29,195 bases of DNA from Cyanophyceae cyanobacterium (lineage in GTDB: Bacteria > Cyanobacteriota > Cyanobacteriia > Cyanobacteriales > JBHJGN01). The position numbers were made by a program, and so were the translations under genes. Positions 2,651-12,654 of the stretch are shown in pieces (within the stretch, counting starts at the first letter, position 1; each line of letters opens with the position of its first letter). The notes under the pieces were generated by a model. It was not told the origin of the DNA. It saw nothing but the letters and a program-made list of their open reading frames with translations, and did not search any database. The stretch is taken from NCBI GenBank assembly GCA_050331735.1, contig JBHJGN010000025.1, forward strand, positions 1 through 29,195, read 5' to 3'.

Positions 2651-3766
2651 ATGATTAGAGTCGCAACAAGGCTGTTAATTGTTACAGTTGAAACCATTAT
2701 CGCCTTGTTTTTGGGGATGGCGATCGCTCACTTAGGTCTGGGGAGTGTCGCTTGGATCTTTGGGGGAATGGGGGCTGGCGCAATCGTTTTTAGAATCTAT
2801 CGGATGCTGAGGCGGCACCCGCTTAAACCGAACAAAATCGGGAGAAAAATCGGCCAGGGAATGGTCGGTTTATCGATTGGTTTTGCGATCGCGAATAGCA
2901 ATTTACTGGCGGCTTCTTCCCGATTGCCGCTGTTTATTTTTCTGACTCTATTTATGCTGCTCTGTGGCAGCGGGATTGGCTATGTTTATGCTCGCATCAG
3001 CCATACTAATTTACTGAACGCGATGCTAGCTACCGTCCCTGGCGGTGTCGCCACCATGTCTAGCATTGCTGCCGATTACGGAAGAAATGTGTCTGTTGTC
3101 GCATCGGTGCAAACTCTGCGCATTACGAGTGTCATTCTAATTATTCCTCTCATTGCTGGAACGTCGGGGGCTGCTCACCCAACGACATTTTCTTTAGGAG
3201 ATGCAGTGGTTGAGCGCGATCCTACTTATTTATTAGTCCTCACGCTCTCGATTTTGGCAGCATGGCTAGGGGTAACATTAGCGAGGCAGTTCCGCATTCC
3301 TGGGGCTTCCTTTTTCGGCAGCCTCGTAGTCGGGATTGGATTCAGCTATGGAATCGGCACTGCTTTTCCCGAGCTTAACTTCACGCCGCCTCCGGTGATG
3401 AGTTTGATGGGTCAGCTATTACTAGGGATGACGGTTGGTGAAGCCTGGAGTAATTGCGCAGAGCTTCAGAAAAAAAATTTGACCTATGCCATGATTCCGG
3501 TCGCTCTGACTATTGCCAGCGGATTTGTAGCGGCCACTGTGGCGATGTCGCTTACTTCTTGGGATTGGCTCACCTGTCTGCTCGTGACAGCGCCTGGAGG
3601 TTCAACAGAAATGATCTTAGTGGCCCTCGCCTTAGACCATCACCCGGAAATTGTTACTGTCGCTCATTCTGTCCGACTGATGGCGCTTAACCTATCCTTA
3701 CCGTTGTGGATATTTTTATTTCGCTACTGGGAGAAGCAGACGATTGCCAGCAAACATCAGTCATAG
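2651..3766 (+). CDS. AbrB-family (putative ammonia monooxygenase-like, AidB-regulator type) polytopic membrane protein
   Basis: 371 aa, very hydrophobic, internally duplicated halves with family motifs ATVPGGVATM...VQTLR and VTAPGGSTEMILVA...AHSVR. Confidence 0.8.
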   Translation: MIRVATRLLIVTVETIIALFLGMAIAHLGLGSVAWIFGGMGAGAIVFRIYRMLRRHPLKPNKIGRKIGQGMVGLSIGFAIANSNLLAASSRLPLFIFLTLFMLLCGSGIGYVYARISHTNLLNAMLATVPGGVATMSSIAADYGRNVSVVASVQTLRITSVILIIPLIAGTSGAAHPTTFSLGDAVVERDPTYLLVLTLSILAAWLGVTLARQFRIPGASFFGSLVVGIGFSYGIGTAFPELNFTPPPVMSLMGQLLLGMTVGEAWSNCAELQKKNLTYAMIPVALTIASGFVAATVAMSLTSWDWLTCLLVTAPGGSTEMILVALALDHHPEIVTVAHSVRLMALNLSLPLWIFLFRYWEKQTIASKHQS

Positions 3767-3844
3767 TCTCAGAGATTTTTTCTATACATCAGTCGGGTAG
3801 CGTTATTAAATTATTTTGAATATTAGCGACAGACTGACTAATTA

Positions 3845-3887
3845 GTAACGAAGACTACTAATTATCTAAAGAGCAAGAAGATAAAGT
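3845..3887 (+). promoter_or_regulatory. Putative NtcA-activated (class II) promoter
   Basis: GTA-acgaagac-TAC (3845-3858) inside a perfect 9-bp inverted repeat TAATTAGTA-N8-TACTAATTA; 23 nt downstream is TAAAGT (TAN3T -10 box, 3882-3887); about 120 nt upstream of the tautomerase ATG. Confidence 0.65.
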
Positions 3888-4004
3888 ATTAACAAAGGCA
3901 ACGGCAGCAATTTTAAGATCAGACTCTAGCTTAGTGAATAGTTTTGATCGGTGCTGTCAGGAAGATAAATATTGAGTTCTGCTCAAGTCTAAGGAAGTAA
4001 ATCA

Positions 4005-4238
4005 ATGCCGTTTGTTACCATTCAAATTGCTAAAGGACATTCTGTTGAACAAAAGCGTAAGCTTGCTCAAGCCGTCACCGATACTCTTGTTGCTAGTCTA
4101 GGCACAAAACCGGAATGGGTAACTGTTCATATTGACGAATTTGAGCGCGAAAATTGGGCCGTTGGCGGCAAATTGCACGTTGATAAGCATTCAGGCAGAC
4201 ATGGCGAAACCACGGGTGGGGACCAGAAAATTAGCTAA
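4005..4238 (+). CDS. 4-oxalocrotonate tautomerase-family protein
   Basis: M-P start (catalytic Pro1), GHSVEQKRKLAQAVTD helix and ENWAVGG motif; AAGGAAG RBS upstream. Confidence 0.9.
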   Translation: MPFVTIQIAKGHSVEQKRKLAQAVTDTLVASLGTKPEWVTVHIDEFERENWAVGGKLHVDKHSGRHGETTGGDQKIS

Positions 4239-4253
4239 AGAGGAAAGAAAATC

Positions 4254-4577
4254 ATGGAATTGACATCAACAGATGCTGAAACACTGGCGCTCAATTTCTT
4301 TCTAGAAGATTGGGAAGTTCCAGAAGGCGATCGCGACTTTTTTATTCCCCTTGATTCTCGCACTGTAGAGGAGCGCTGGTATGTGGTCGAGATTGGCGTC
4401 GAAGGCTTGCCGGATAAGTGGGTGATCCAAGTCTACGATGAAACCAAAGATTGCGATCCTTGTTTTACCTTTGTTTCTCCAATTAAAGCTTCAGAAAGCG
4501 AGACAGGATTAGAAGAAATGCCAGAAAGCATTGCTAAAATTCTCCGATCGGAACGGCAAAGTTTAGTAATTAGTTAG
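4254..4577 (+). CDS. Acidic hypothetical protein with CDPC motif (paralog A)
   Basis: 107 aa ORF with GAGGAAAG RBS, 15 nt after the tautomerase stop; alignable over its full length with the next ORF. Confidence 0.85.
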   Translation: MELTSTDAETLALNFFLEDWEVPEGDRDFFIPLDSRTVEERWYVVEIGVEGLPDKWVIQVYDETKDCDPCFTFVSPIKASESETGLEEMPESIAKILRSERQSLVIS

Positions 4578-4621
4578 TCGTTAGTTGTTAAAAAAGTAGA
4601 AAACCCAAGGATAAAGAGCTA

Positions 4622-4930
4622 ATGATTAACTCAACTGAAGCAGAAAAATTAGCTTTTGAATTTTTAACGAGCGAGTGGCATGTTCCAGCAGAAGACCGAA
4701 ATTGGTTTACAGTTCTGTCTACACGGACTTTAGGAGAAGATGGATATGATGTAGAAATTGGGATCGATGGGTTTCCTGACCGCTGGATTGTGGAGGTTTA
4801 CGATACGGGAAAATGTGAACCTTGTTATGAATTTTCTTCACCGATTCGAGGTTCTGAAAGCAACAGCGATTTAGAAGAGTTGCCCGACTGGATTGCGCAA
4901 GTACTCATGGCAGAAAGAAAGCAGAGATAG
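4622..4930 (+). CDS. Acidic hypothetical protein with CEPC motif (paralog B)
   Basis: 102 aa; about half of the residues identical to 4254..4577 by manual alignment (e.g. VEIG.[ED]G.PD.W...VYD, C.PC..F.SPI..SES). Confidence 0.85.
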   Translation: MINSTEAEKLAFEFLTSEWHVPAEDRNWFTVLSTRTLGEDGYDVEIGIDGFPDRWIVEVYDTGKCEPCYEFSSPIRGSESNSDLEELPDWIAQVLMAERKQR

Positions 4931-4992
4931 TTATTGGTCATTCGTCATTAGTCACTGGTTTTTAGGAAAAGGACGAAGAAGGACAAAAAACG

Positions 4993-5613
4993 ATGAAGGC
5001 AGATTGGTTGGTAACAGAAAATGGGGTTTGCTCTCTGTGCAAATCTGTACGGGAGTGGGATTTATTAGCTGAAGAATATCGACTGTATCGATTTTTAACG
5101 GAAGTGGAAGATATGACGAGAGTATCCGCTAGCGAAGGAATTGATGAAGAAAGTACTTTGTCGGGACTGCGAAGGCTCGTTAGGAAACTAATTATTAACT
5201 GCTATACCGTTAAAACTCGCCTCCCCGAACCTAATCAAAAAACGGGAATCTCTGTGGTCATGCTATACGATGAATTGGGTTTTCCGATGACGATTCAGAC
5301 AGAGATGAATTTACAGGGGACGAACTCACCGATCCACAATCACGGCACCTGGGGCATCGTTATGGTGTTGCAGGGTAAACAGAAAAATACTTTTTGGAAG
5401 CGCAATCCGTCTGCTGAGTTTCCTGGCAGAATTGAGCGCGTCGGCGAGAGAATTATTGAACCTGGAGAACTTATTAGCTTTACGACTGGAGCAATTCACA
5501 GCATAGAAGCCGTCGGAGACGAACCAACGGTCACGTTTAATTTGTATGGGGAAACTCACGGTAGTAAAAGATATCAGTTCGATCTTGATAAGCAGACTGC
5601 TAAGCATTTTTAG
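4993..5613 (+). CDS. Cupin-fold metalloenzyme, cysteine/thiol dioxygenase-like
   Basis: SPIHNHGTWG (HxH) and GAIHSI third His, VTFNLYG C-terminal motif; N-terminal CSLC. Confidence 0.8.
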   Translation: MKADWLVTENGVCSLCKSVREWDLLAEEYRLYRFLTEVEDMTRVSASEGIDEESTLSGLRRLVRKLIINCYTVKTRLPEPNQKTGISVVMLYDELGFPMTIQTEMNLQGTNSPIHNHGTWGIVMVLQGKQKNTFWKRNPSAEFPGRIERVGERIIEPGELISFTTGAIHSIEAVGDEPTVTFNLYGETHGSKRYQFDLDKQTAKHF

Positions 5614-5687
5614 TTTGAAGAGTTAGTCGTGTTTTTCGAGCTTGACAAGCAAATTGCTAAGCAGGTTTAGCTTTAAGGGTTAGTGGT
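5578..5687 (+). repeat. Imperfect tandem duplication (57-bp period) of the cupin gene 3' end
   Basis: 5578-5630 versus 5635-5687: 43/53 identical by manual comparison; they translate as FDLDKQTAKHF* and FELDKQIAKQV*. Confidence 0.85.
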
Positions 5688-7200
5688 TATTCGTATTTAT
5701 GGTGACGGAGAGAATAGAGTACAAGTAACGTTGAACCATCAGCAATCAACCAATAATCCTTTTTTTGATCTTGATTACGAACTGGCTTTAGAATCTTTAG
5801 GCCAGGAATTTTATGATCGCACCCAGCCGGCTCGTTTCTGTCAGCTTAACCTACGCTTTCGTAATGAGCGCCTGTTGCCAATTCTTGGTTTAGACCCAAA
5901 GACAGTTACTGATGAGCATTGGCTTGATTTTGGCGGTCGTTTTCGAGGGAGACAATCTTGTTTAGCCTTACGCTATCACGGTTATCAGTTCGGTCAATAT
6001 AATCCTTATTTGGGCGATGGTCGGGGTTTTCTCTACGGACAGGTGCGCTTAACGGATGGGATCTACGATTTTGGGACGAAAGGATCGGGTCAAACGCCTC
6101 ATTCTCAGTCTCGGGATGGCCGCCTGTCGCTTAAAGGAGGGGTGCGGGAAGTTCTGGCGGCGGAGGCGCTGCATCGGTCGGGAATCAGGACATCTCGCTG
6201 TTTAAGTTTAATAGAGACTGAAGCCTTGACAAGGAACGGAGAGACGGTGCGCGGATCGGTGATGGTGCGCTTTAGTCGTTCTCATCTGCGCTTTGGCACG
6301 TTTGAACGTTTAGAGTATTACGATCGCCCCGATCTTATTGAGATACTATTAAACCACGTTATTCAATACTATTATCCTCATCTATGGGGGCAAAAAGAGG
6401 TCTACCTTCGCTTCTATGCTGAATTAGTCCAACGCATCGCTCAACTGGTAGCGCAGTGGATGGCGGTGGGGTTTTGTCATGGTGTGCTCAACACCGATAA
6501 TATGTCGATTACAGGCGAGAGCTTCGACTACGGTCCTTATGCCTTTATTGATACCTACAACCCATCCTTCACGGCGGCGGATTTTGATCGCCAGGGACGC
6601 TACAGCTACCGCAGTCAGCCGAGTGTCTGTCGCTGGAATTTGGAGATGTTGCAGCGTCCTCTCTCTGCTGTCATTCCTATTGCAGAAATGGAGGCGATTT
6701 TAGAAAGTTTTCCTGAACTTTATACTCAATATTACCACCAGCACCTGCTGAATAAACTGGGATTTGATTGCTTATCGTTTTTAGAAACGGAAGAATTAAT
6801 CGATCTGACGCTACAGTTTTTGTTTTTAACTAAAGTTGGTTATCATCAGTTTTTTAGCCAACTCAGACAACAATTTTCTGTGTGCTGGCGCGAGAACCCG
6901 GACCTGATTTTGCAGGCGTTGGAACCCTTAGTGTCTGGAGAGGAAGTGGCTATTTTGAAGCGTTGGTGCTGGCTATATCATCAGCTATTGCTCGGGCGAT
7001 CGCCTGTTGAACTTAAAAACATTGCCCAACGATTGCAGCAATTTAATCCTCTCGCCGCGTTGGTTAACTCGGAAATTGAGATGATTTGGCAAGCGATTAG
7101 CGAACGCGATAACTGGCAGCCATTTGGCGACCTGGTTAATCTGATTCAGTCTGAAGAACCGAGAAGCGAGCGCACTTCTAGAATGATAACCAGAAGGTGA
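5683..7200 (+). CDS. selO: Protein adenylyltransferase SelO/YdiU family (true start possibly TTG at 5731)
   Basis: YHGYQFGQYNPYLGDGRG, KGSGQTP, HLRFGTFE and the catalytic HGVLNTDNMSITGESFDYGPY motif. Confidence 0.93.
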   Translation: MVIRIYGDGENRVQVTLNHQQSTNNPFFDLDYELALESLGQEFYDRTQPARFCQLNLRFRNERLLPILGLDPKTVTDEHWLDFGGRFRGRQSCLALRYHGYQFGQYNPYLGDGRGFLYGQVRLTDGIYDFGTKGSGQTPHSQSRDGRLSLKGGVREVLAAEALHRSGIRTSRCLSLIETEALTRNGETVRGSVMVRFSRSHLRFGTFERLEYYDRPDLIEILLNHVIQYYYPHLWGQKEVYLRFYAELVQRIAQLVAQWMAVGFCHGVLNTDNMSITGESFDYGPYAFIDTYNPSFTAADFDRQGRYSYRSQPSVCRWNLEMLQRPLSAVIPIAEMEAILESFPELYTQYYHQHLLNKLGFDCLSFLETEELIDLTLQFLFLTKVGYHQFFSQLRQQFSVCWRENPDLILQALEPLVSGEEVAILKRWCWLYHQLLLGRSPVELKNIAQRLQQFNPLAALVNSEIEMIWQAISERDNWQPFGDLVNLIQSEEPRSERTSRMITRR

Positions 7201-7293
7201 GAGCGATCGCATCCTTTGGCAATCCCTTTCCGTCACGCACGGTAAATAGAACGCAATAAAAATCTCCTCAGTGGGCAGTAATACAATGATTCT

Positions 7294-7580
<287 letters not shown>

Positions 7581-7727: not shown

Positions 7728-8702
7728 TTACCAATGGGCCGCAATGAGTTCGTGGATTTTTGAACTACTCCAATATTTGTTGTGGACAGAAGAAACGTGA
7801 TCTCCTACATCCGTATAGATGTCTTTAACAACCGGAGAGTCTTGCATCAGTAAACTCGCAGGCCAGGAAATGATATCATCTTTGTCCCAAAAGTTGATCC
7901 AACGCGCTCCCTGGAGAGGAGACACAAATACTTCCGGATTGCGGTCTAATCCGTAATGACTCGGATTTAGCTTGTGACCACTCGCGAGAATTTCCACTAC
8001 AGCATTACTGCGAAATGCCAGCATCGATAGGGGAGAACCAAAGGTGATCAGTCGGCGCACCCGCAGTTTTTTGTTTTCAGCCAACTGACGCAGTTTCTTA
8101 AAATCGCTCATTGTGTCTGTGGCAGTAATAGGCTGCTTGTCTTCAATAAACTCGTGTTTGCTATAAATTTCTGGCGGGGAAAAGAGATAGAAAAGAAGGT
8201 CAAACGCAACCACCGAGCCAGCGCTGTGAGCAATCAATGTGAGAGAAATTGGCTCACCCTGCTCCAACGGTTGATGAATCCGTTGCAAAATCTGAGAGGC
8301 AACAGTAGCACGAATGCTATTTTTACCGTCTCTAGACGTGTAGTAGAACATATCGGAAAATCCTTTGATCATCAGTGTTCGCATGGTGAAGAGCAGTAAG
8401 CGAAACGGATTAAGGGTTGGATCAGCCGCATCTTTGATTTCTGGTAAGATATCATTGGCAAATTGCTCTTGAGCTTGTGCTAATAAGCGATCGCCCTCAG
8501 GAGCAGGATGGTTATCATAATTCCATCCCCATTCCACGTCGCAGCGGTTGGCAGTTTCCCATTTTGCTCGGTTAGGAAACTGCTTGTCTACTGCTTTGAC
8601 TCCATCATGGAGTTTGTCATAGGTTTCTTTGTGCTTCCGATTGTGGTCTTGCGAGACCCCATGAATATAAACTAAGTATTCGTGCATTGAGTTAGACAAC
8701 AT
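7728..8702 (-). CDS. Putative alpha/beta-hydrolase (lipase/esterase-like) of unknown substrate; start at ATG 8702 or 8687
   Basis: YLVYIHGV oxyanion region, LIAHSAGS nucleophile elbow, LITFGSP, WINFWDKDDIIS (Asp) and C-terminal VHNKYW (His). Confidence 0.7.
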   Translation of the reverse strand: MLSNSMHEYLVYIHGVSQDHNRKHKETYDKLHDGVKAVDKQFPNRAKWETANRCDVEWGWNYDNHPAPEGDRLLAQAQEQFANDILPEIKDAADPTLNPFRLLLFTMRTLMIKGFSDMFYYTSRDGKNSIRATVASQILQRIHQPLEQGEPISLTLIAHSAGSVVAFDLLFYLFSPPEIYSKHEFIEDKQPITATDTMSDFKKLRQLAENKKLRVRRLITFGSPLSMLAFRSNAVVEILASGHKLNPSHYGLDRNPEVFVSPLQGARWINFWDKDDIISWPASLLMQDSPVVKDIYTDVGDHVSSVHNKYWSSSKIHELIAAHW

Positions 8703-8846
8703 AAAATTAGAGTGACAAATTGTGACTGCAATCTGCAAAAGTGCCAGCCTGAAGCTTCCAATTATCACTCGAAGATACGCTATCCTTTCTATGCAGGTTA
8801 TCGAGACTTGTAAGAAGACTTTACACACTCGACGCTACGGGTGTCC

Positions 8847-10824: not shown

Positions 10825-12654
10825 CTAAGCTTTTAAAAGCATGATTCTGAGCTGAGAAAGCTGAATCAGCCAGGGAAAGGAACGCTCTTTTAACTCTAGC
10901 CAGTTATCTTTAAATACTTCCGCTTGGAGATGATAATCTTCAGGATAGAGAGCGGGTTGGTGCAGCTTAAGATATAAAGTCATGCGGTGTTGGGTTTCGC
11001 TAATGGTTGCTAACCAACACGGGAACGTATTCACTCCGTCGGTTTCCGGAAAAATAAGCTGGTGGGCGCGAATCCCGACATACTCCAGAGATGGCGGAAT
11101 TGGTTCAATGACTGCTAACTGACAGTGCCAGTCGAGCGCTTTGATTTTGTGTTGAGCAACCGCAATGGCACGGGAGAAGTTTTTACAGCCCGTTAACTGT
11201 GCTGTTCTCCAGTTGGGAGGACGTTCAAAAATTTCTTGTTTAGAACCGTGAGCGATCGCTTTGCCGGCATCCACCACCAGCAATTGAGGACAGACGCGAT
11301 AGACTTCTTCTAGGTTATGAGTAATAAAGAGCGTCACCCCCTGATAGCGAATCAGGCTCATTCTGAGCAGCTTTTCCTGTTTATCTCGTAAATAGGTATC
11401 TAACGCTGAAAACGGCTCGTCGAGAAGCATCATTTCCGGATGGCTGGCCTTGGCTCTCGCGAGCGCCACTCGCTGCTGCTGCCCCCCGGAAAGTTCTCCC
11501 GGATAGCGGTTGCCCATGCCTTGGAGATCGACTGCCATGAGATGGGTTTCGACTTCCTGTCTGATGTCTCGACGGGATTTCTTGCGCACCCCAAAGGCAA
11601 TATTTTCCGCCACCGTCAGATGGGGAAACAGGGCATAGTTTTGAAACAAAAACCCGCAGGCGCGATCACGGGGAGGAAGATCAATGCCTCGGCGGGAATC
11701 GTACAGCACTCGTCCGTTGAGAATAATTTTCCCTCGATCTGGAGTGTCTAACCCGGCAATACAGCGCACGATGGTACTTTTTCCGGCCCCCGATGCCCCG
11801 AGTAAACCCAGGGGGGTTTGGTCAGTGGTGAAGGAAACATCTAAGCGAAAATCCGCTAATTGTTTTTGAATATCAACGATTAATTGAATCGTGGCTGGTG
11901 GCAGATAGTCTGGGTGTTGCAAACGGTTTCGACTAATGGCGCGATTTGCTAATCGGGCAGTCGGAAGGGTCCATGAGTGGCGACGAGGTTTTGGGGAGAG
12001 TTTCCGGTGGTTATCTCCATAATTAACCGCCGTAATCACCCCTAAAGAGATCGCCAGCATGATCGCGACCAGCATCCAAGCCCGATTCATTGAACCGCCT
12101 TCGGCAGCTAAAAAAATAGCGATGGGAATGGTTTCGGTTTTGCCAGGAATGGCCCCTGCTAACATTAACGTGGCGCCAAACTCTCCCAAGGCCCGAGCAA
12201 AAGCGAGTAAAGCACCAGCAATCAGTCCTGGTTGCGCGAGAGGAAACATAATCCGCCAGAAAACTATCCATTCTGAAGCGCCCAGGGTTCTGGCACAGGC
12301 CAGCAGATTCGCATCAATTTGTTGAAATGCCCCCAATGCCGTTCTGTACATGAGGGGAAAAGCCACCACTGTTGAGGCGATTACGGTGGCGTACCACGAG
12401 AAAATTACTCTAATGCCAACAGAATCTAAGAGTTGACCAATGGCCCCGTTTTTTCCAAACAGCAACAGCAGCAGAAAACCAACAACCGTTGGGGGCAGAA
12501 CTAAGGGGGCCGTCAATACCCCTTCGATGATTCCCTGTCCTTGGCCCCGATACCCCAGCATCCACCGCGCCGCCATGACTCCGAGGAAAAAGGTAATGAC
12601 CGTGGCAGTGGTGGCGGTTTTAAGGGAGATCCAGATAGGGGTGAGGTCGGTCAT
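10825..12654 (-). CDS. modB: Fused molybdate ABC transporter permease and ATPase ModBC
   Basis: N-half PLVLPPTVVGF, ARTLGAS, FARALGEFGAT (ModB); C-half GASGAGKS, FQNYALFPH, LSGGQQQRVALARA, LLDEPFSALD (ModC). Confidence 0.95.
   Translation of the reverse strand: MTDLTPIWISLKTATTATVITFFLGVMAARWMLGYRGQGQGIIEGVLTAPLVLPPTVVGFLLLLLFGKNGAIGQLLDSVGIRVIFSWYATVIASTVVAFPLMYRTALGAFQQIDANLLACARTLGASEWIVFWRIMFPLAQPGLIAGALLAFARALGEFGATLMLAGAIPGKTETIPIAIFLAAEGGSMNRAWMLVAIMLAISLGVITAVNYGDNHRKLSPKPRRHSWTLPTARLANRAISRNRLQHPDYLPPATIQLIVDIQKQLADFRLDVSFTTDQTPLGLLGASGAGKSTIVRCIAGLDTPDRGKIILNGRVLYDSRRGIDLPPRDRACGFLFQNYALFPHLTVAENIAFGVRKKSRRDIRQEVETHLMAVDLQGMGNRYPGELSGGQQQRVALARAKASHPEMMLLDEPFSALDTYLRDKQEKLLRMSLIRYQGVTLFITHNLEEVYRVCPQLLVVDAGKAIAHGSKQEIFERPPNWRTAQLTGCKNFSRAIAVAQHKIKALDWHCQLAVIEPIPPSLEYVGIRAHQLIFPETDGVNTFPCWLATISETQHRMTLYLKLHQPALYPEDYHLQAEVFKDNWLELKERSFPWLIQLSQLRIMLLKA

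Follow-up and report, generated by a model that had tools for sequence, protein, structure and literature searches.

We analyzed a 29,195-nucleotide (nt) stretch of DNA (hereafter the window) from contig JBHJGN010000025.1 of a Cyanophyceae cyanobacterium (assembly GCA_050331735.1); all coordinates are those of the whole stretch. The window contains five open reading frames (ORFs) at 4005–7200, all on the forward strand, which are predicted to encode a tautomerase, two small paralogous proteins (A and B), a cupin, and a SelO protein. Our preferred reading, which we hold with moderate confidence, is that these genes form an accessory operon, peculiar to Pleurocapsales and controlled by nitrogen, on the outer margin of a nif supercluster, that its enzymes would act in thiol and O2 chemistry, and that its SelO, a second paralog which we call SelO2, would add a further layer. 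At its core the module is a known set of nif-accessory genes, listed before but without an explained function, that has been rearranged in this lineage. New here are a Pleurocapsales-wide NtcA-type promoter, a tandem duplication of the small protein, an independent pairing of tautomerase and cupin, a single invariant Cys in the small protein, the tight coupling of that protein to a second one (c1), and the dedicated second SelO. Among the genomes sampled, close homologs of the small protein, and the closest homologs of the cupin and the tautomerase, occurred exclusively in N2-fixing cyanobacteria.

Results

A first-pass annotation of the window had described five co-oriented genes with short spacers behind one NtcA-like promoter and had proposed that they form an undescribed thiol/redox module. 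The ORFs and spacers are as it described them. The tautomerase gene (4005–4238, +) encodes a 77-amino-acid (aa) member of the 4-oxalocrotonate tautomerase (4-OT) family (PF01361, TIGR00013). It is followed, after 15 nt, by small protein A (4254–4577, +; 107 aa), from a narrow cyanobacterial, diazotroph-restricted family; after a further 44 nt by small protein B (4622–4930, +; 102 aa), its tandem paralog; after 62 nt by a 3-His cupin related to thiol dioxygenases (4993–5613, +; 206 aa); and after 69 nt by SelO2 (5683–7200, +; 505 aa, GTG start), the second SelO/YdiU paralog of this genome (PF02696, NF000658). The five genes are a real operon-like unit beside nif genes; that they are co-transcribed here we infer from sequence only. 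A survey of sequencing runs listed no RNA run for this stretch and a single DNA run, probably that of the source sample.

Upstream of the tautomerase lies a predicted NtcA-type promoter (3845–3887, +), consisting of GTAACGAAGACTAC at 3845–3858, a spacer of 23 nt, and the −10 box TAAAGT at 3882–3887. In class II NtcA-activated promoters, the consensus GTA-N8-TAC precedes a TAN3T −10 box by about 22 nt, and this site conforms to that layout with its 23-nt spacer. Although GTAACGAAGACTAC is the sole GTA-N8-TAC in the window, 2.56 such sites would be expected by chance, so that a lone site has no statistical weight of its own. The composite of GTA-N8-TAC, 23 nt, and TAN3T was matched once in the window against 0.06 matches expected. 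Of 24 related loci, 17 had this composite, identically spaced, ahead of the tautomerase gene; GTA, TAC, and the −10 box were fixed in them, and the N8 and the flanks varied. As a motif, the NtcA-like promoter is conserved across related loci.

To follow the genes across cyanobacteria, presence and absence were scored in the same 401 Cyanobacteriota genomes, with NifW as a proxy for nif. The small protein was found in 63 genomes and NifW in 81, and all 63 fell within the 81; that is, 63 of 81 NifW-positive genomes carried the small protein and none of the 320 NifW-negative genomes did. Enrichment in diazotrophs, which the first-pass annotation had singled out as a check on its proposal, was thus borne out for the small protein. 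The closest cupins (>53% identity) were in NifW-positive genomes, several of them 2–8 kb from nifW (G023, G158, G166, G246, and G264), and it was only for this closest subgroup that the cupin was diazotroph-specific. Tautomerase matches at 48–83% identity occurred in 20 of 191 sampled genomes, the source genome included, and all 20 were NifW-positive.

Two genomes among the 63, G226 and G232, had weak small-protein matches with in-frame stops (G226:C1:1087154-1087303 and G232:C1:2558368-2558526). Both belong to one genus, measure 2.8–3.1 Mb, are NifW-positive, and have kept the cupin; a 4.8-Mb congener, G228, carries an intact small protein. On follow-up, the remnant in G232 (L104) gave 32% identity over 52 residues and that in G226 (L106) gave no match, and nothing was concluded from either.

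Linkage was assessed by scanning genome-wide for relatives of the small protein, which gave 289 stretches; the best 80 loci were kept, and all listed record titles were cyanobacterial. Twenty-four of these loci are Pleurocapsales-like (L001–L024) and the remaining 56 are not (L025–L080). Among the 80, the order tautomerase-A-B-cupin-SelO occurred in the Pleurocapsales-like loci only. Beyond that one clade, the cupin lay within the locus with the small protein in 17 of the 56 loci, SelO was linked in none of them, and the tautomerase was linked in four, where it was on the opposite strand and 4–6 kb away. The gene found directly 5′ of the small protein in 41 of the 56 was c1 (87 aa, presumably asr2523), with a gap of mostly 2 nt or a stop/start overlap. 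This tight spacing suggests translational coupling and a complex of the two proteins. Other frequent neighbors in the 56 loci were c9 (160–170 aa), the cupin, a CysK-type pyridoxal phosphate enzyme, an ArsC-family protein, and a luciferase-like monooxygenase. Of the 56 loci, 18 held one or more nif markers within 6 kb (CnfR/PatB-like in 12, NifX-like in six, NifV in five, and NifT in five); the CnfR/PatB-like neighbor is a protein of ∼535 aa with Fer4 and helix-turn-helix domains.

The source genome carries the other part of this gene set on a separate contig. Contig C34 (L083) contains nifB-fdxN-nifS-nifU and, on the other strand, nifP-dps-nifV-nifT-fdx-c9-c1-cysK-c17-ArsC-like. Judging by this gene order, c9 and c1 remained within the nif cluster, and the cupin and small protein are now on its opposite margin. 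The block that follows nifT and the ferredoxin on this contig (G000:C34, 1108–4138, −) is made up of consecutive sulfur- and thiol-related genes for c9, c1, a CysK paralog, a thioredoxin-like-[2Fe-2S]/DUF1636-like protein, and an ArsC-family protein.

The tautomerase matched PF01361 with an E value of 9e-16 and 58 bits (cut-off 22) and TIGR00013 with 61.6 bits (cut-off 56.9). It starts M-P-F-V and so has, directly after the initiator Met, the N-terminal Pro that is catalytic in this family. Its scores were below the cut-offs of all 4-OT/DmpI equivalog models, and it is the sole PF01361 gene in the source genome. A second pairing with the cupin was found in G128, which belongs to another cyanobacterial family and whose locus (L107; G128:C62, 6891–7784) is without the small protein. 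There, a tautomerase 74–80% identical and a cupin 67–69% identical stand 12 nt apart within the nif cluster, flanked by a 2Fe-2S-like gene and cnfR, in the order nifP-dps-nifV-nifT-fdxN-c1-cysK-c17-tautomerase-cupin-cnfR. This independent adjacency supports the two enzymes acting on one small molecule, and the first-pass suggestion that tautomerase and cupin may process a thiol metabolite gains support from it.

In Pfam, the cupin gave weak matches to general cupin models only, reaching 22.9 bits for PF00190 (Cupin_1; cut-off 22) and falling below the cut-off for PF07883 (Cupin_2); there was no Pfam CDO_I match at E ≤ 0.01 and no NCBIfam match. Searched against the PDB as a single sequence, it matched the mercaptosuccinate dioxygenase 8vni (E 6.5e-8) as well as cysteine and 3-mercaptopropionate dioxygenases, and a profile of 28 sequences matched 8vni at E 5e-12 and 3uss at E 3e-6 over positions 31–190. 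The predicted iron ligands H115, H117, and H169 were invariant in 38 of 38 homologs; their counterparts in 8vni, 3uss, and 6xb9 are the HxH and IH motifs. The PDB matches and the invariant site agree with the earlier assignment of this protein as a putative 3-His cupin of thiol dioxygenase kin; we liken it to thiol dioxygenases in probable function but stop short of classifying it as a cysteine dioxygenase. The family consensus T-v-T-F-N-L-Y-G stands where 3uss and 6xb9 have s-I-H-V-Y-G and 8vni has H-L-H-M-Y-G. Two Cys residues lie near the N terminus, C16 (present in 37 of 38 sequences) and C13 (in 24 of 38). The source genome has no other member of this cupin family.

SelO2 matched PF02696 with an E value of 1e-187 and 624.7 bits (cut-off 22.8), over profile positions 1–465 of 466, and NF000658 (YdiU) with 514.5 bits (cut-off 431). 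The other SelO of the genome, on contig C83, has the higher Pfam score (737 versus 625 bits). When SelO2 was aligned to 6EAC, the active-site Lys, the HGV(L/M)NTDN loop, and the metal-binding Asp of FD[FY]GP were all present; we take the Lys, the catalytic loop, and the metal-binding Asp to be the catalytic residues of SelO. HGVLNTDN and FDYG were found in 19 of 19 module SelOs and KGSG in 18, the exception being the truncated copy of L010. The catalytic core that had been read as intact at first pass (HGVLNTDN...DYGP) is so both in the alignment to a solved structure and across the module copies.

We placed SelO2 in a quick IQ-TREE maximum-likelihood tree of 38 sequences, with support from the Shimodaira–Hasegawa-like approximate likelihood ratio test (SH-aLRT). 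The 19 module SelOs grouped into a single clade (SH-aLRT 100) whose stem measured 1.16 changes per site, and the C83 copy fell outside it together with 18 other ordinary SelOs. All loci bearing SelO2 belong to one clade, at 73–78% identity, and, the source genome aside, no SelO more than 61% identical to SelO2 was present in the 401-genome sample. SelO as such occurred in 200 of the 401 genomes, among them almost all members of the photosynthetic class, with or without nif. Among the 22 Pleurocapsales loci long enough to judge, SelO2 followed the cupin in 19.

These results bear on the possibility that the neighborhood has no joint function, SelO2 being a duplicated housekeeping gene that came to lie beside the nif accessories in a single ancestor and stays in place by descent. 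The confinement of SelO2 to one clade, and the occurrence of SelO irrespective of nif, are in keeping with that explanation, as are the loci, given in the Discussion, from which SelO2 is missing or in which another gene separates it from the cupin. It accounts less well for the retention of every catalytic motif across so long a stem, and for the fact that in every locus having SelO2 the gene lies after the cupin on the cupin's strand, often with gaps of 4–130 nt, an arrangement that suits co-transcription. We consider it unlikely, albeit the most serious competitor of our preferred reading. SelO2 is a retained, fast-evolving, clade-confined second paralog, found only next to the cupin and with intact catalytic motifs; this combination is suggestive of recruitment to the module.

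The small proteins matched no Pfam or NCBIfam family. A and B are 49% identical to each other, and their family numbers 105 homologs, all with cyanobacterial source names. Two copies were present in 21 of the 24 Pleurocapsales-like loci and a single copy in the 56 other loci, so the duplication was seen only in Pleurocapsales. The first-pass annotation had drawn attention to CxxC motifs in three consecutive products (CDPC, CEPC, and CSLC), and it had proposed a self-contained module in which SelO modifies the small CxxC proteins. Spelled out, this is a thiol/disulfide module whose three CxxC proteins would cycle between dithiol and disulfide and in which SelO would AMPylate the small ones. SelO is known to AMPylate redox proteins such as glutaredoxin. 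The three motifs are indeed present in the window, paralog A has CDPC in 25 of 25 Pleurocapsales copies, and SelO2, with its motifs intact, is syntenic in 19 of 22 loci.

The Cys pairs as such proved not to be conserved. In an alignment of 33 family members, C67 and P69 were invariant (33/33), and C70 was replaced by N or S in 12. A motif census of all 102 family members in the 80 related loci plus the window found CEPC in paralog B of this window only, the other 21 copies having CEPY, CER(Y/D), or CESY. Outside Pleurocapsales (n = 55) the motif was CDPC in 19 members, CDPN in 26, and CDPS in 10, so that the second Cys was missing in 36 of 55. The cupin pair fared no better, with C13 in just 24 of 38 sequences. 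Non-conservation of the Cys pairs among homologs, which the annotation had itself named as an outcome that would speak against its module, is therefore what we observed.

The small protein has a predicted fold of cystatin/PepSY-like type. An AlphaFold2 model of paralog A (predicted local distance difference test score 88.5) has an alpha+beta arrangement, in which two helices precede four strands and the chain ends in a further helix. Foldseek returned no match to the PDB at E ≤ 0.001, and a wide structural search with VIA-align returned cystatin-, PepSY-, and NTF2-like folds at Z ≤ 7.8; because this best Z is at a level rated common, only a general cystatin/PepSY/NTF2-like arrangement can be stated. 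No thioredoxin was among the structural matches in the Foldseek and VIA-align lists. The ESM Atlas gave unnamed clusters plus a PepSY lead at 0.83. A small-protein profile found nothing below E 0.2 among PDB sequences and, among 1.84 billion representatives, 30 matches at E ≤ 0.001, all of 42–159 aa and with no fusion partner. In the model, the invariant Cys would sit in a Cys-Asp/Glu-Pro loop that forms a predicted hairpin.

With the second Cys absent in 36 of 55 homologs outside Pleurocapsales and in 21 of 21 other B copies, we do not class the small proteins as thioredoxin-type CxxC oxidoreductases. The module is not a dithiol (CxxC) redox relay. Since SelO, the proposed modifying enzyme, was also linked in none of the 56 loci beyond the clade, we regard the thiol/disulfide module of the first-pass annotation as quite improbable.

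A single invariant Cys could instead be the substrate of an enzymatic O2 switch, in which the cupin would be a protein-cysteine dioxygenase that oxidizes the loop Cys of the small protein as O2 rises. Plant and animal N-terminal cysteine oxidases (PCO/ADO) are oxygen sensors and offer a comparison. The predicted hairpin-loop position of the Cys would suit such a switch, as would a cupin without the triad His of small-molecule enzymes and the apparent joint move of cupin and small protein into the Pleurocapsales arrangement, with c9 and c1 left behind among the nif genes. The cupin persists, however, without the small protein in the NifW-positive genomes G074, G128, G266, and G286, and its pairing with the tautomerase in G128 points to a small-molecule substrate. 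A predicted complex of cupin and small protein scored 0.00, which counts neither for nor against their pairing. We attach only a slight probability to this switch, and a slighter one yet to an elaborate version of it, in which cupin and small-protein Cys would report O2 to the N2-fixation machinery of oxygenic phototrophs and the Pleurocapsales SelO2 would AMPylate the small proteins as a second input, controlled by nitrogen.

The genes outside the Pleurocapsales arrangement have published counterparts. Stucken et al. 2010 (PMC2821919) name alr2517, alr2518 (“cupin 2 domain”), alr2520 (“nitrogenase-associated protein”), asr2523, and alr2524 as Anabaena genes that are present in N2-fixing cyanobacteria and regulated on nitrogen depletion, the diazotroph-specific set being their Table 5. 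Strong induction of the patB(all2512)-alr2524 region 21 h after nitrogen step-down appears in Flaherty et al. 2011 (PMC3141674), and tables of PMC4390870 include alr2517, asr2523, and alr2524 among lower-expressed genes in sigma-factor mutants. In PMC5862535, asr2523 belongs to a nitrogen-fixation co-occurrence module; alr2522-alr2527 are grouped in PMC7065334 as “unknown proteins, luciferase-alpha subunit.” Two preprints add that CnfR binding in vitro upstream of alr2522 has been cited (bioRxiv 10.1101/2025.04.01.646610) and that a cupin-domain gene and a nitrogenase-associated ArsC/Spx gene lie inside the Synechocystis nif cluster (bioRxiv 10.64898/2026.04.18.719408).

In the Nostocaceae loci of our set, the order is cupin, ArsC-like, cysK (other strand), c6, c1, small protein, c7, and luciferase-like monooxygenase. 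This fits alr2518 to alr2526 one for one, and on that basis the small protein would be alr2524 and the cupin alr2518. The claim of an undescribed system is sustained for the second SelO, which is new, but not for the cupin and the small protein, whose probable orthologs appear in the published diazotroph list (PMC2821919). A literature search combining cnfR, nif, and cysteine dioxygenase found no paper. Another, combining SelO, cyanobacteria, and AMPylation, found only reviews of adenylyltransferase as an ESKAPE drug target and of bacterial pseudokinase families, as far as the available portions of these reviews indicate.

The nif/mod cluster of the window begins at modBC (10825–12654) and extends to nifH at the window end. 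Downstream of the module, on the opposite strand, are a 366-aa ORF, an amidase, and modBC, and beyond modBC come a methyltransferase, modA, feoB, fdxH, hesB, hesA, nifW, nifX, nifN, nifE, nifK, nifD, and nifH. The 366-aa ORF (7728–8828, −), which lies between the module and amidase/modBC, had no Pfam or NCBIfam match. Just 3′ of SelO2 there is a remnant of a BrnT-family toxin gene (7286–7470, +; PF04365, 34.9 bits); it has an early in-frame TAG, its match covers only the first half of the family profile, and it is probably a pseudogene. On the other side, upstream of the promoter, an AbrB-duplication membrane protein (2651–3766, +; PF05145, TIGR03082) is syntenic in ∼14 of the 24 related loci.

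Discussion

We propose the following mechanism for the module. Nitrogen limitation would lead NtcA to switch the unit on. The cupin would then oxidize a small thiol with O2, the thiol probably deriving from cysteine made by the nif-linked CysE/CysK, and the tautomerase would handle a keto/enol acid that arises from, or precedes, the cupin step. Together, cupin and tautomerase may hold thiol and O2 chemistry within limits that suit nitrogenase and the assembly of its metal clusters. The small protein would use its only invariant Cys, which is exposed, to serve as a carrier or partner protein, and its partner in most lineages would be the translationally coupled 87-aa c1. In the Pleurocapsales, SelO2 would be an added, lineage-specific layer of AMPylation.

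Several observations weigh against this proposal. The regulatory part of it faces the 7 of 24 related loci in which the NtcA motif was not found; in two of these (L013 and L016) the module comes straight after nifX-like genes, and in a third (L023) it is inside a nif cluster. Nitrogen regulation in the source organism is, moreover, a reading of the promoter sequence and of that sequence only. As to the association with nitrogen fixation, 18 of the 81 NifW-positive genomes are without the small protein, and several of these retain the cupin, so that the two do not depend on occurring together. A single family, f6 (45 of 45 genomes), makes up most of the small-protein profile, and since related genomes are not independent, the profile counts overstate independence. 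The cupin was present in 99 of the 401 genomes, and NifW-negative genomes have copies 41–48% identical to it.

The proposed chemistry is also open to question. Thiol dioxygenases have an outer-sphere Ser-His-Tyr triad that plays a role in these enzymes. The cupin has Asn where the solved enzymes have the triad His, although the Tyr before Gly is retained; with this substitution and the lack of a CDO_I match, thiol dioxygenase activity is not assured. SelO2 was absent from three of the 22 judgeable loci (L008, L011, and L023), and in four loci a GNAT gene on the opposite strand stands between cupin and SelO2. Finally, the identification of the small protein with alr2524 and of the cupin with alr2518 is one we infer from gene order and annotation, and not from sequence comparison.

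Cyanobacteria run an O2-sensitive nitrogenase beside oxygenic photosynthesis, and accessory genes matter for moving N2 fixation into plants. Our analysis narrows a vague group of diazotroph-specific hypotheticals to a thiol-dioxygenase-like iron enzyme with a tautomerase, a tiny single-Cys protein coupled to an 87-aa partner, and an extra SelO that, in one order, is dedicated to the module and placed behind an NtcA-type promoter. Should SelO2 indeed act on nif-linked proteins, SelO AMPylation would, as far as the literature search above shows, be tied to nitrogen fixation for the first time.

Each enzyme of the module can be set beside a characterized family. Like members of the 4-OT family, the tautomerase is a short protein that scores above the cut-offs of PF01361 and TIGR00013 and has Pro after Met; it differs in its nif rather than aromatic-degradation context and in a 17-residue C-terminal tail. 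The cupin shares with bacterial thiol dioxygenases (the mercaptosuccinate dioxygenase 8VNI, the 3-mercaptopropionate dioxygenases 3USS/4TLF, and the cysteine dioxygenases 6XB9 and 4QMA) the cupin fold, the HxH...H iron site, and the Tyr before Gly, and its profile matches them at E 5e-12 to 7.5e-5 over most of its length. It departs from them in having Asn for the triad His and Thr for Ser, in its lack of a CDO_I match, and in an N-terminal 30 residues with the nearly invariant Cys16. SelO2 resembles the SelO/YdiU proteins of P. syringae (6EAC) and E. coli (6K20/6III) in its full-length match and in the aligned Lys, catalytic-loop, and Asp motifs, and is distinguished from them as a faster-evolving second copy that is found only beside a nif-linked cupin in one clade.

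As a whole, the module is closest to the patB(all2512)-alr2527 region of Anabaena/Nostoc PCC 7120, with which it shares gene families and whose order is that of the Nostocaceae loci. In contrast to that region, the window has the small protein in duplicate and directly before the cupin, behind a tautomerase and an NtcA-type promoter; c9, c1, and cysK are elsewhere in the nif cluster, and a second SelO follows.

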